In this document: one piece after another, positions 4,575 through 6,802 of the stretch
Numbering within the stretch: position 1 is the first letter of the stretch
How the letters are laid out: each line of letters opens with the position of its first letter
DNA from: Candidatus Aenigmatarchaeota archaeon
GTDB lineage: Archaea > Aenigmatarchaeota > Aenigmatarchaeia > QMZP01 > QMZT01
Reading direction: 5' to 3'
Assembly: GCA_043808015.1 (NCBI GenBank)
Contig: JAZDFI010000013.1
Coordinates: 1 to 22,251 of the forward strand
DNA: 22,251 bases
The notes under the pieces: model-generated
Databases searched by the model: none
Seen by the model: only the letters and a program-made list of their open reading frames with translations
What the model was told of the DNA's origin: nothing
Program-made: the position numbers and the translations under genes

Positions 4575-4678
4575 GTCCCGGTAGCTCAGCTGGCAGAGCG
4601 TTCGGCTGTTAACCGAAAGGTCGCACATGAGCTGGGGAACCATCTCGTGGACTAAAGGTTCGAATCCTGCCCGGGACG
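4575..4678 (+). tRNA. tRNA-Asn(GTT) with a 31-nt intron at position 50/51
   Basis: Acceptor GTCCCGG/CCGGGAC plus G73; D-arm GCTC/GAGC; anticodon arm TTCGG-CTGTTAA-CCGAA. The T-arm GCAGG-TTCGAAT-CCTGC is restored only after removing 4625-4655. CCA not encoded. Confidence 0.95.
4625..4655 (+). other. BHB-type tRNA intron (T-stem, 50/51)
   Basis: Central helix GGTC(4619-22)/GACT(4650-53), bulges GC^A and AA^A, inner helix CATGAG/CTCGTG. Confidence 0.88.
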
Positions 4679-4685
4679 TTAAAAA

Positions 4686-4715
4686 TGAGGGCTAACGCAC
4701 CCTCAATTTATTTTT
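4686..4715 (+). terminator. Hairpin plus T-tract after tRNA-Asn
   Basis: TGAGGG(4686-91)/CCCTCA(4700-05) inverted repeat followed by ATTTATTTTT. Confidence 0.45.
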
Positions 4716-4764
4716 GTTAGAAATAGTTACATTAAGTTATATTTTTCCTAAACTCATTATAAAA

Positions 4765-5565
4765 ATGGAGCTTGAATTGAAAAGTGTTGAATTCAGTGTT
4801 TTTGACAAACGTAGAAAAATCTCATTGCCGCACACTCTAAATTCAAATTTAGCTGAAGATATCGGGATACAAATAGGGGATGGTTGTTTGTGCAGAGGCA
4901 AAAAAGATTATACAATAATTTGCAGTTTTAATGCGATAGAAGACAAATACTACGTTGATAATTTTGTCATCCCTCTGAAAACAAAACTTTTCAAAAACGT
5001 GAATTTGATAAAAAACGCTAGATTTGGAGAGATGAGAATAAAAATAGGTTCCAAAGCTATATTCGATTTTTACACAAAGATTATCGGTCTTTCTTTTGGA
5101 AAGAAAGATCATGTAACTATACCGAAAATAATATTCAGAAATAAAAACAACACTATAGCTTGTTTAAGAGGTATCATTGACACGGATTTTTCTATCAGTT
5201 TCAAAAAAAGACACAAAAACATTCATTATTATCCTGTCATATCAGCGAACTTCAAAAGCAAAGAACTTGTTATACAGCTTAGTAAAATTTTTAAAGATTT
5301 GGGATTAAAAGTTCATACGGAATATGATTACGAGAGGTTTGATGAAAGATTCGGGGAGATAATAACACACTATATTTACTTGAAAGGTAAGGATAACTTA
5401 GAAAAATGGTGGGATATCATAGGAAGCAACAATCATAGACATATAACCAAATATAAAATTTTCAAGAAGTTTGGCTATTGCCCACCTAGGATAAATATCA
5501 CAGAAAGGTTTAAAATGATAAAATCTGGTGTTAGTAATAACCTTTTTGAATCTTACACCCAATAA
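4765..5565 (+). CDS. Free-standing LAGLIDADG homing endonuclease (two motifs)
   Basis: Motif 1 LAEDIGIQIGDG, motif 2 ACLRGIIDTDF; Lys-rich; markedly AT-rich relative to host genes. ATG 4765 preferred over TTG 4714. Confidence 0.88.
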   Translation: MELELKSVEFSVFDKRRKISLPHTLNSNLAEDIGIQIGDGCLCRGKKDYTIICSFNAIEDKYYVDNFVIPLKTKLFKNVNLIKNARFGEMRIKIGSKAIFDFYTKIIGLSFGKKDHVTIPKIIFRNKNNTIACLRGIIDTDFSISFKKRHKNIHYYPVISANFKSKELVIQLSKIFKDLGLKVHTEYDYERFDERFGEIITHYIYLKGKDNLEKWWDIIGSNNHRHITKYKIFKKFGYCPPRINITERFKMIKSGVSNNLFESYTQ

Positions 5566-5571
5566 AAGACC

Positions 5572-5850
5572 ATGGAGCTTTTCGACGTGGTCGACAGGCA
5601 CTGCAACATCCGCTTTCTCAAGACCAACTGTAACTTCAGGGAATGCGGGAAGCCGCCTGAGAAGGAAATGCTTATTTTCGAGATGACCATGAACACGGCC
5701 AAGAAGAAGGACATAATTTCCCTTTACCTCTGCCGTGAACACTACAGGGAGATGGAGAAAGCGCTGGAAGGCGTTATCGGCAGGTTCAGGAACGGCCGCG
5801 TCTACAGGATAAAGCAGACGGACGATACGATAGACGTGATTAAATATTGA
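5572..5850 (+). CDS. Small hypothetical protein, putative Zn finger
   Basis: CNFREC...LCREH (C-x4-C...C-x2-H); host-like GC and codon usage. Confidence 0.65.
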   Translation: MELFDVVDRHCNIRFLKTNCNFRECGKPPEKEMLIFEMTMNTAKKKDIISLYLCREHYREMEKALEGVIGRFRNGRVYRIKQTDDTIDVIKY

Positions 5851-5874
5851 TTAAATAACAATACAAATTATTTT

Positions 5875-6657
5875 ATGGATTATATTGTCACATTAAACGA
5901 TGTGCTGAAAATCTACAAATCACAAAAAGCAGGCGAGATGGCTTTGAAACCTTATAAAAAATGGTTTCCTTTAAAGCCCTCACCGGAGTTAGCAGGCGTA
6001 GTTGCCGATTTGATATGTGACGGTCACCTTCAGGGCAGTCCAAAATGGAGAATAGATTTTACCTTCAAAATCAACGAAGAAAAGCTGAGATTCGAAAGAA
6101 AAATTGAAAAAATATTCGGTGTTAAAGGAAAAGCGAGGCCTTGTTATTCCAACGTGTGGGGAGAAAGTTACAATTATGGTGTGAATTGCAAACCCCTAGC
6201 TAAAACCCTTTTTATGTGCGGGGTTCCCAGCGGCAACAAGGTATTGGGAAATTTCGCTTTTCCGGCATGGATTCTTGAAGATAAAAATTATTTCAGAGAA
6301 TTCACGAAAAGATTTTATAATTGCGAGGGCACATGCTGGGGAGGTAAAAGTCCGGGTATAGGCTTTGAGATGTGGAAAGAAGCTGGTAAAATCGACAATT
6401 TAAAAGAATTTTTGGAAGTCATAAGATGTGGCCTGAAAAAATTTTTCGATATAAAAACAACGGAAATTTTCACGACAAGTTCCATGCATGCGAGAAAAGA
6501 TGGCTATGTGACAAAGCCTCTGAGATTTTATATAAAAAGAAAAGAGTCTATATTTAAATTCTATAAAGATATAGGATTTGAATACGAAAAACAAAATAAA
6601 TTGAAAAACATAATAGAAAAATGGGGCAGAACCTCTGTGGGAACTGAAGTGCCATAA
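5875..6657 (+). CDS. Free-standing LAGLIDADG homing endonuclease (two motifs), 3' end overlapping tRNA-Phe
   Basis: Motif 1 LAGVVADLICDG, motif 2 EFTKRFYNCEG, typical C-terminal FYKDIGF..KQNKL; AT-rich; TTAAATA boxes upstream. Confidence 0.88.
   Translation: MDYIVTLNDVLKIYKSQKAGEMALKPYKKWFPLKPSPELAGVVADLICDGHLQGSPKWRIDFTFKINEEKLRFERKIEKIFGVKGKARPCYSNVWGESYNYGVNCKPLAKTLFMCGVPSGNKVLGNFAFPAWILEDKNYFREFTKRFYNCEGTCWGGKSPGIGFEMWKEAGKIDNLKEFLEVIRCGLKKFFDIKTTEIFTTSSMHARKDGYVTKPLRFYIKRKESIFKFYKDIGFEYEKQNKLKNIIEKWGRTSVGTEVP
6643..6657 (+). other. BHB-type tRNA intron in the acceptor stem (4/5), 15 nt
   Basis: Outer helix CT(6635-36)/AG(6659-60), central helix GTGG(6637-40)/CCAT(6652-55), bulges GA^A and AA^C. 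Excision gives GGGACAG, the exact complement of CTGTCCC. Confidence 0.78.
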
Positions 6658-6684
6658 CAGTAGCTCAGCCCGGGAGAGCGCTCG

Positions 6685-6723
6685 AGTGAAACGGATTTGA
6701 CAAAAAAACCGTTTTATGGCGAA
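6685..6723 (+). other. BHB-type tRNA intron in the anticodon stem (30/31), 39 nt
   Basis: Outer helix AG/CT, central helix CGCT/GGCG, bulges CG^A and AA^G, 9-bp inner helix GTGAAACGG/CCGTTTTAT. Confidence 0.9.
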
Positions 6724-6802
6724 GCTGAAGACCGATAGGTCGTGGGTTCAAATCCCACCTGTCCCATATTTTATTTTTATTCTTTCCATCGAATCATTCT
6801 CT

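Follow-up and report, generated by a model that had tools for sequence, protein, structure and literature searches.

The window analysed here, a 22,251-nucleotide (nt) stretch of a Candidatus Aenigmatarchaeota genome (assembly GCA_043808015.1, contig JAZDFI010000013.1, positions 1 to 22,251 of the forward strand), was found to contain an open reading frame (ORF; 5875-6657, + strand) for a LAGLIDADG homing endonuclease that runs into a tRNA-Phe gene interrupted by two introns. This arrangement is best explained by insertion of the ORF between the promoter region and the +1 position of tRNA-Phe(GAA), of which one gene was identified in this genome (DPANN, Aenigmatarchaeota-like). The presence of the ORF coincides with introns at tRNA positions 4/5 and 30/31, both of which are lacking in genomes of the same genus that do not carry it. 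With a probability of about 0.6, the ORF would be a free-standing gene for a homing endonuclease directed at tRNA-Phe genes, moving together with introns that are themselves ORF-less.

By this explanation, the enzyme would cut tRNA-Phe genes that lack both the ORF and the introns near their 5' end, and repair from an ORF-bearing allele would copy the ORF along with the neighbouring introns. These introns, or the replaced leader, would break the recognition site and protect the carrier, the outcome being a case of 'collaborative homing' with an archaeal tRNA intron. The layout is that of collaborative homing, with the nuclease gene found beside and not inside the intron-bearing gene. The inserted gene would abut the 5' edge of the tRNA, with its frame running on until a CCAT-AA motif (as here) or U8-A9-G10 of the tRNA is read as a stop; the 19-nt overlap of the two genes and the position of the stop at the intron end would thus arise passively.

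The tRNA-Phe gene and its introns

The exon and intron structure of the tRNA-Phe gene (+ strand) was built by hand. Exon 1 (tRNA positions 1-4; 6639-6642), which pairs with 6762-6765, is followed by a 15-nt intron at position 4/5 (intron 1; 6643-6657), by exon 2 (positions 5-30; 6658-6684, identified with Rfam, the stretch 6657-6684 being 100% identical to locus L115), by a 39-nt intron at position 30/31 (intron 2; 6685-6723) and by exon 3 (6724-6766), comprising position 31, the anticodon loop with GAA, the T arm, the 3' acceptor strand and the discriminator A. Removal of both introns in silico gave a 74-nt tRNA whose full sequence is contained without mismatch in L115, an intronless tRNA-Phe locus of genome G183 from the same genus. 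The match to Rfam family RF00005 (6657-6762; 29.5 bits against a gathering score of 29) covers model positions 4-67 and holds a 48-nt insert in the anticodon arm, and together with the spliced product it defines a tRNA-Phe cloverleaf with anticodon GAA.

ARAGORN called 0 tRNAs in the window and, in intron mode, 18 tRNAs but none for Phe in the whole genome, and was set aside as a detector of these genes. Rfam gave 27 tRNA matches above its cut-off in the genome, many of them 100-160 nt long, and genes with several introns are probably numerous among its tRNAs. The preliminary description of the locus had asked whether this is the only tRNA-Phe gene; one was found in the assembly (G000; 934 kb, 39 contigs), which is 90.7% complete.

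Judged only by its sequence, the placement of intron 1 is ambiguous by one base, since an A is present at both 6642 and 6657. Archaeal introns of this kind are cut at a bulge-helix-bulge motif, in which two 3-nt bulges surround a helix of 4 base pairs and cleavage follows the second bulge base. This rule, which fitted 37 loci with an intron at 4/5 and 10 with an intron at 9/10, selects 6643-6657 (4-base-pair helix of 6637-6640 with 6652-6655, with 3-nt bulges), and the TAA of the ORF is therefore the exact end of intron 1, as previously described. Both introns of the window were found by hand to have the bulge-helix-bulge layout, that of intron 2 being canonical (helix of 6679-6682 with 6718-6721, inner stem of 6686-6694 with 6709-6717, + strand). 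The intron 2 region (6672-6732) folded with z = -3.2, with 0 of 200 shuffles as stable. RNAfold placed the intron 2 helix slightly off the canonical register, which was kept because the junction was verified by it, and the substitutions seen in the inner stem in genome G073 appeared compensatory by eye. Single-sequence folding of the intron 1 region (41 nt) was no better than that of shuffles (z = 0.68), so this motif is supported by comparison across loci and not by thermodynamics. The same arrangement was identified in L001, L080 and L113 (94%-identical loci), and the four proteins closest to the product of the window ORF all end in VGTE[VR]P.

Other gene models were considered. An exon 1 at 6623-6626 (with a 31-nt intron, an ATGG/CCAT helix and a G4-U69 pair) is a minority option with a weaker helix in G073, and the model starting at 6639 was preferred because its product occurs in L115. 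An intron at 7/8 with exon 1 at 6623-6629 gave no splice motif by hand, and a model with the ORF inside an intron was rejected, as no exon-1-like sequence with a splice-motif partner was found just upstream of 5875. The ORF starts 764 nt 5' of exon 1 with only its last five codons being intronic, and in loci L006 and L027 its stop abuts a contiguous tRNA directly, the ORF there not lying within an intron.

The homing endonuclease and its decay

The ORF had been described as an endonuclease gene, and this was borne out, the enzyme being of the LAGLIDADG homing type. It encodes 260 amino acids ending in VGTEVP and, as judged by its conservation and modelled fold, is a real, selected two-motif LAGLIDADG homing endonuclease gene with a product that is probably active as such. 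No Pfam match was obtained for the protein at E ≤ 0.01; NCBIfam matched it to the intein-endonuclease part of the RtcB model (E 7e-11). Twenty five homologs were identified in a large protein collection, PF14528 being found in 13 of them. D49-G50 and E151-G152, which by eye we take to be the two LAGLIDADG motifs with the catalytic acidic residues, were invariant across the 25-sequence alignment. The AlphaFold2 model (pLDDT 92, pTM 0.89) has a pseudo-symmetric two-domain alpha-beta LAGLIDADG fold, with the last helix ending at residue 253 and the residues of the overlap (255-260) having a pLDDT below 50 (disordered). Top Foldseek matches were VMA intein endonucleases, PI-PfuI, I-Tsp061I, I-DmoI and I-SceI, with further matches to maturases (bI3 maturase and the bifunctional maturase I-AniI) and WhiA; at least 142 PDB entries matched at E ≤ 0.001, the 50 best being almost all LAGLIDADG enzymes, inteins, maturases and WhiA.

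Purifying selection on the ORF was indicated by ratios of nonsynonymous to synonymous differences (pN/pS) of 0.14 against L001 and 0.16 against L113 (94%-identical copies). Its guanine plus cytosine (GC) fraction is 0.367 compared to 0.509 for the genome, with only 1.5% of 783-nt segments of the genome being as low; that of intron 2 is 0.359. The ORF does not encode the tRNA-splicing endonuclease, EndA, which is found elsewhere in the genome as an ORF of 395 amino acids with two PF01974 stretches and PF02778. The host is thus able to splice. A candidate RNase P RNA was also identified in the genome (56 bits, below the cut-off).

The copies at L029/31, L061, L063, L066, L070, L074, L103 and L110 have internal stops or matched in split form, and such broken copies represent the decay typical of selfish genes. 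Two further loci were observed in which little of the ORF is left: at L167 (G148) a 49-residue C-terminal remnant abuts a contiguous tRNA-Phe, and at L161 (G128) a weak match of 47 bits lies upstream of a tRNA-Phe with an intron at 9/10. These suggest that the ORF decays from its 5' side with the tRNA-proximal end being kept.

Linkage of the endonuclease family to tRNA-Phe

Protein-based scans that were blind to tRNA genes gave 79 metagenome and 33 genome loci of the ORF family, from records titled Aenigmatarchaeota, Nanoarchaeota, Woesearchaeota and Iainarchaeum-like metagenome-assembled genomes (MAGs), and from a few others. Together with the window, these 113 loci formed 91 clusters at 97% nucleotide identity. 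A parsable tRNA-Phe was found within 500 nt of the ORF in 68 of the 91 clusters; for a single-copy 75-nt gene in a genome of approximately 1 Mb, such closeness would be expected by chance about once in a thousand. Flanks were too short in 17 clusters, with Rfam tRNAs in two of these (L008, L037), and in six clusters no tRNA-Phe was parsed in spite of long flanks, though among these six a tRNA-Phe could be recognised by eye in L003 and L076, and a signature of D arm plus anticodon in L067 and L085. The ORF family therefore adjoins tRNA-Phe in most of the loci recovered, across several DPANN lineages.

The ORF was found upstream of the tRNA on the same strand in 49 of the 68 clusters and upstream in divergent orientation in 16, with two clusters being convergent and one having the ORF downstream. 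At L088, L008 and L048 the tRNA-Phe was observed downstream of the ORF on the opposite strand, the final 19 nt of the ORF at L088 lying antisense over the 3' end of the tRNA; the tRNA 5' ends of L048 and L088 were parsed as contiguous, and that of L008 was left unparsed owing to a short flank.

The empty site in related genomes

Four other genomes of the genus have been sampled, and a profile search with the ORF gave a match in one of these (G073) and none in G158, G183 and G195. Both G158 and G183 keep the gene order of a small ORF, tRNA-Phe and Trm1 and have no equivalent of the ORF with intron 1 (window positions 5818-6656) or of intron 2 (6685-6723), their tRNA-Phe being contiguous. A contiguous tRNA-Phe is also present in G161, of the same family. 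The ORF is thus an optional gene that occurs sporadically at a fixed site, being carried by G000 and G073, with G158 and G183 having the empty site. Since tRNA-Phe genes in the phylum are overwhelmingly contiguous and free of the ORF, the state of the window was read as a gain.

One or more A/T-rich, TATA-like elements (5841-5858, + strand) are situated on either side of the stop codon of the small ORF (5572-5850, + strand), 17-34 nt before the ATG of the endonuclease ORF. In G158 (L114) and G183 (L115) this same element is located after the stop codon of the small ORF homolog, approximately 30-39 nt before the +1 position of the tRNA, and it is probably the former tRNA-Phe promoter. As the element that precedes the tRNA in these relatives now precedes the endonuclease ORF, the latter sits within the former tRNA leader. 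Relative to G183 and G158 the insert measures approximately 840 nt and holds the LAGLIDADG ORF only. An integrative element at a tRNA attachment site was considered and rejected, as no integrase or recombinase was found in the insert and no repeat of the 3' part of the tRNA at the Phe locus. Sediment metagenome contigs gave a weak hint of forms that skip the ORF or intron 2 beside forms that carry them, the sides of these joints being only 20-27 letters long at 80% likeness and possibly belonging to other species.

Association of the endonuclease with introns

An intron of the bulge-helix-bulge type within the first 10 nt was identified in 53 of the 68 ORF-linked tRNA-Phe genes. Its position was 4/5 in 37 clusters, 3/4 in three, 9/10 in ten and elsewhere in three, with the gene being contiguous in the remaining 15. 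The three other positions were parsed as 7/8, 10/11 and 5/6. L081, L075 and L096 were misparsed; L081 and L075 are 4/5 by other parses, and L096 looks like a 9/10 intron with 3 of 4 helix pairs.

For comparison from the tRNA side, tRNA-Phe genes were located using a pattern for their 3' half, which matched 124 of 201 genomes of the phylum of the window and 95 of 151 genomes of a second phylum (that of G201, locus L084, a MAG titled Nanoarchaeota). Matches that appeared tRNA-like were chosen by eye (100 of approximately 150 and 80 of 115, respectively), those dropped being without a T-stem-like context or, in two cases, at contig starts. Including L113-L115, the sample consisted of 183 loci, in which the ORF was searched for with TBLASTN over approximately 1.5 kb upstream and 1.2 kb downstream of the tRNA. 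In the phylum of the window, 79 of 80 contiguous tRNA-Phe genes were without the ORF, the other having the 49-residue remnant; both genes with an intron at 4/5 had a full ORF; 13 of 15 with an intron at 9/10 were without it, the others having matches of 293 bits and 47 bits; and six loci were left unresolved. In the second phylum, 73 of 75 contiguous genes lacked the ORF, one of three genes with a 4/5 intron carried it and two were without it, with two loci left unresolved.

Across both phyla, the ORF matched with more than 200 bits at six loci (three with an intron at 4/5, one at 9/10 and two contiguous), and the 167 parsed loci without the ORF comprised two with a 4/5 intron, 13 with a 9/10 intron and 152 that were contiguous. 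The 4/5 intron thus occurred at three of the six strongly matching loci and at two of the 167 lacking the ORF (Fisher p = 2e-4). As relatives are not independent, this overstates the significance and serves as an indication. The ORF is strongly enriched beside tRNA-Phe genes that have an intron in their first 10 nt.

Splice motif and acceptor-strand copy at the end of the ORF

The leader part of the intron 1 splice motif (6633-6640, + strand) consists entirely of coding sequence. Its central helix strand (6637-6640, + strand) is formed by leader bases -2 and -1 with G1 and G2 of the tRNA and has 6652-6655 (+ strand) as its 3' partner, and the strand at 6633-6636 (+ strand) belongs to an outer helix in which the leader of the window makes 5 of 7 possible pairs with exon 2. 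In the 4/5 class as a whole, leader bases -2 and -1 together with G1 and G2 pair with the 3' end of the intron, mostly as ATGG/CCAT, with wobble forms (GTGG/CCAT, ATGG/CTAT) and compensated forms (ACGG/CCGT, GCGG/CCGT, CTGG/CCAG) also being found; only 3 of 4 pairs are formed in eight clusters. Seven leader bases further upstream pair with exon 2 positions 6, 7 and 9-13, with 6 or 7 of the 7 pairs present in 15 of the 37 clusters with a 4/5 intron, and the outer-helix base next to the central helix covaries (A-U, C-G or G-U). In the 9/10 class, tRNA bases 4-7 pair with the intron end, and the helix covaries with the acceptor sequence (ACAG/CTGT, GCGG/CCGC, ACGG/CCGT, AAGG/CCTT). The preliminary description had placed leader bases of the splice motif within the coding sequence, and this agrees with the covarying helix; its pairing of CTGT (6635-38) with ACAG differs from the register favoured by comparing the loci. 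Its expectation that removal of the 3' end of the ORF would harm splicing gains support from the same covarying leader helices, in the different register.

A second copy of the 5' acceptor strand of the tRNA was identified at 6623-6629 (+ strand; codons W251-G252-R253), which can form 7 of 7 pairs with 6759-6765, a pairing that is used in the minimum free energy structure given by RNAfold for 6620-6766. Among ORF-linked tRNA-Phe genes, such copies were found for 9 of 10 with a 9/10 intron, 9 of 37 with a 4/5 intron and 0 of 14 that are contiguous, and in the tRNA-anchored sample for 9 of 14 genes with a 9/10 intron against 1 of 155 contiguous genes. The acceptor copy may act as a decoy partner of the 3' acceptor strand during splicing. 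As the last approximately 35 nt of the ORF double as leader, splice-motif strand and acceptor copy, the 3' end of the ORF would not be freely lost.

Copies of 7 nt were observed 3-20 nt upstream of exon 1 of intron-bearing tRNA-Phe genes in the window and at L002, L003, L011, L078, L110, L128, L137, L162, L171, L205 and L214. Three tandem copies of exon 1 are present at L162.

Meaning of the overlap and rival explanations

The codons GTG GGA ACT GAA GTG CCA TAA (6637-6657) were confirmed, as previously described, to be in frame with the ORF and to carry it through exon 1 and the whole of intron 1, with no in-frame stop before 6655. The backup stop proposed for the spliced form is likewise present, the frame then reading GTG GGA CAG TAG with the TAG being U8-A9-G10 of the tRNA. 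Whether homologous loci share the overlap had also been raised, and they do so in part: among the 49 same-strand clusters, the genes overlap in 21, abut exactly in two and leave a gap in 26. Because of these gaps and the 16 divergent clusters, the overlap is not a defining trait of the family. Stops of the ORF are often supplied by conserved RNA features, namely U8-A9-G10, U8-A9 with the first intron base (six clusters having a gap of -10 with the stop at one or the other of these) or, as in the window, the intron-end motif. A conserved CCAT-AA-like splice motif closes most of these tRNA-Phe introns and provides a TAA in one of the three frames, so that a stop exactly at the intron end is a by-product. 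The C-terminal tails of the family vary in length and sequence in the alignment; with the tail disordered and only 21 of the 49 same-strand clusters overlapping, the overlap too would be a by-product of insertion at the 5' edge of the tRNA. It is best explained as a frame running on into the edge of the insertion, with no sign of selection as a switch.

Such a switch develops the proposal of the preliminary description that 5' processing on a shared transcript ties nuclease expression to tRNA maturation. In this scenario, a single transcript would be reshaped or destroyed as a nuclease message by RNase P cleavage at 6638/6639 or by splicing, nuclease output would depend on tRNA-Phe maturation, and the overlap would be selected for this. 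Co-transcription is plausible because the ORF lies between the conserved A/T-rich promoter-like element and the tRNA, and many same-strand loci, with 0-45 nt from stop to tRNA, leave no room for an intergenic promoter; the geometry in the window is as described, and of the 49 same-strand clusters 21 have overlapping genes and two exactly abutting ones. However, an A/T-rich stretch within the 3' end of the ORF (approximately 6593-6602, 37-46 nt before +1) could equally serve as a separate, internal tRNA promoter, a shared transcript is impossible for the divergent clusters, and the gapped clusters and variable tails, the latter disordered in the protein of the window, also argue against a selected interlock, which we regard as unlikely. 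A role as a domesticated helper is improbable as well. Here the LAGLIDADG protein would no longer home but would bind the tRNA-Phe precursor and aid folding and splicing of its 5' intron, in the manner of group I maturases, which would fit its tight, lineage-spanning linkage to intron-bearing tRNA-Phe, the purifying selection and the Foldseek matches to bI3 maturase and I-AniI. Maturases often lose their catalytic acidic residues, but both are invariant in the 25 sequences here; furthermore, the ORF is spread sporadically (one of the four other genomes of the genus), broken copies exist, 15 of 68 partners have no 5' intron and 15 of 167 ORF-less genes have one anyway, and such introns are cut by EndA, which the genome encodes.

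In another scenario, given a low probability, the enzyme would target the 5' flank or body of tRNA-Phe, and the introns would be non-protective passengers, co-converted within the repair tract or later arrivals. The data that support a homing endonuclease travelling with protective introns fit this too, as does the lack of a 5' intron in 15 of the 68 carriers, and intron 2 is too distant from intron 1 for the two to break one site together. The clustering of introns in the first 10 nt beside the ORF (50 of 68 at 3/4, 4/5 or 9/10) speaks against this scenario, as does the mirrored arrangement at tRNA-Asn (see below), where the ORF lies downstream and the insert is in the 3' T arm, a layout better explained by a role at the cut site than by chance hitch-hiking. 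Several points weigh against the preferred explanation of homing with protective introns. Introns 1 and 2 are 26 nt apart, too far for both to interrupt a single recognition site of the usual length, and one of them at least must be a passenger. The 15 intron-less carriers mean that an intron is not required for carriage, and the 15 ORF-less genes with a 5' intron (13 of these at 9/10) mean that introns persist, or arise, without the ORF; tRNA-Phe genes interrupted by an intron in their 3' half escape the tRNA-side sampling. Identity between the window and G073 is approximately 91% at the nucleotide level over the ORF region, like that of the flanks, so the ORF may have been inherited vertically since these genomes split, and its mobility need not be recent.

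Tentatively, the explanation may extend further, and free-standing LAGLIDADG genes may be the long-sought means by which non-canonical bulge-helix-bulge introns spread through the tRNA genes of archaea. A given subfamily would be specific for one tRNA gene (Phe here, and Asn for a second), inserting at the edge of the tRNA together with a short intron that has no ORF and interrupts the target site of the nuclease; the nuclease gene would later decay, with the intron remaining. Many orphan 5' introns would be explained if this were true. The inserted gene would become part of the precursor, with its 3' end contributing both the leader side of the splice motif and an acceptor copy that serves as a decoy. 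This decoy would keep the 3' acceptor strand occupied during formation of the splice motif by the true 5' strand.

A second LAGLIDADG gene at tRNA-Asn and related loci

Upstream of the tRNA-Phe locus, the window contains a tRNA-Asn (GTT) gene (4575-4678, + strand; Rfam 49.1 bits) with an insert of approximately 31 nt in the T stem (approximately 4625-4655), as delimited by comparison with the insert-free gene of G158. A second LAGLIDADG-type ORF (4714-5565, + strand, with the conserved part from approximately 4762) is situated 36 nt downstream of it. This ORF has a GC fraction of 0.298, matches the intein part of V-ATPase A in NCBIfam and has 28 homologs with PF14528 or with names of the 'intein/homing endonuclease' kind; no sequence likeness between the two LAGLIDADG ORFs of the window was detected with BLASTP (E = 1.1). 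The ORF and the insert are both absent from G158 and G183, the tRNA-Asn of G183 having a canonical anticodon-loop intron instead. In G073 the equivalent of window positions 4732-5441 is missing (most of the ORF being deleted) and the tRNA-Asn insert is kept. The last approximately 14 nt of tRNA-Asn are repeated 5 nt downstream in G158 (L114) only, which looks like an attachment-site repeat or the scar of a lost insert.

Relatives of this second ORF were identified in 56 of 201 genomes of the phylum, frequently with more than one and with up to six in a genome. The 29 that were fetched (L301-L329) are free-standing LAGLIDADG ORFs of approximately 250-300 amino acids, of which approximately 13 have a tRNA, often long and intron-bearing, within approximately 150 nt. 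Another two are located within 23S rRNA, and a further one is beside 5S rRNA. Rough ARAGORN calls suggest that the tRNA partners are of various identities.

Elsewhere in the genome, a third LAGLIDADG-like frame, broken by one TGA and one TAG, was observed at G000:C8:33730-34422 (- strand), with an intron-bearing tRNA called by ARAGORN on the same strand (approximately C8:33652-33818) touching its 3' end. A tRNA at G000:C6:1082-1198 (- strand) resembles the tRNA-Phe in having an Rfam match only over model positions 4-67, and may have an intron in the first bases of its acceptor.

Significance and comparison with known systems

The locus, together with approximately 70 related ones, places a testable candidate beside the introns, a nuclease gene that is gained and lost with them. 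It also represents a selfish gene physically interlaced with a tRNA gene that is apparently present in one copy and probably essential, which may slow the loss of the former. Standard tRNA finders miss tRNA genes of this kind, and annotation pipelines would label the ORF as hypothetical. Free-standing homing endonucleases, collaborative homing in phages, SegB, archaeal LAGLIDADG genes within introns and tRNA intron gain linked to an element are already known. A search of open full texts found no account of LAGLIDADG genes flanking DPANN tRNA genes or linked to non-canonical introns, and the word LAGLIDADG was absent from the papers on tRNA disruption found by the full-text search.

The archaeal endonucleases I-DmoI and I-Tsp061I are encoded in bulge-helix-bulge introns of rRNA genes. 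They share with the present system the fold, the kind of intron, the splicing machinery and a conserved stable-RNA target. Their ORFs are wholly intronic, whereas that of the window is mostly upstream of the tRNA and is on the opposite strand in 16 clusters of its family.

The closest parallel in layout and co-occurrence is F-CphI of cyanophage S-PM2 (Zeng, Bonocora and Shub 2009, as described in PMC6083498), which is likewise a free-standing nuclease gene beside a gene, psbA, with an ORF-less intron. There, the intron blocks self-cleavage and the nuclease mobilises the intron. That system is of a phage and combines an Endo VII-type nuclease with a self-splicing group I intron in a protein-coding gene. 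The putative one described here combines a LAGLIDADG enzyme with a protein-spliced bulge-helix-bulge intron in a tRNA gene of a cellular archaeal genome. SegB of phage T4 is also a free-standing homing endonuclease gene among tRNA genes and promotes inheritance of the tRNA region; it differs in being of the GIY-YIG family and in a phage, with no introns known to be involved and no known tRNA overlap (PMC2330249).

In a Caldiarchaeum population, intron gain in tRNA-Thr was described by Sugahara et al. (2012, PMC3293823) as a polymorphism within the population that coincides with insertion of a mobile element and with an extra 5' tRNA fragment. The likeness lies in the gain of an intron along with an element at a tRNA locus and in an extra 5' piece of the tRNA. 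The Caldiarchaeum element is of an integrative type, of 1.8 kb and with a DNA recombinase, whereas the insert in the window consists of one LAGLIDADG gene and lacks a recombinase, the extra piece here being a 7-nt acceptor copy before exon 1. Non-canonical tRNA introns have been found to behave as sequences that are mobile at the DNA level (2010 study summarised in PMC4090602), and in that review the mechanism is termed 'still unknown', with no agent identified. In contrast to the introns covered there, those at the locus described here have a candidate agent that is physically linked to them.

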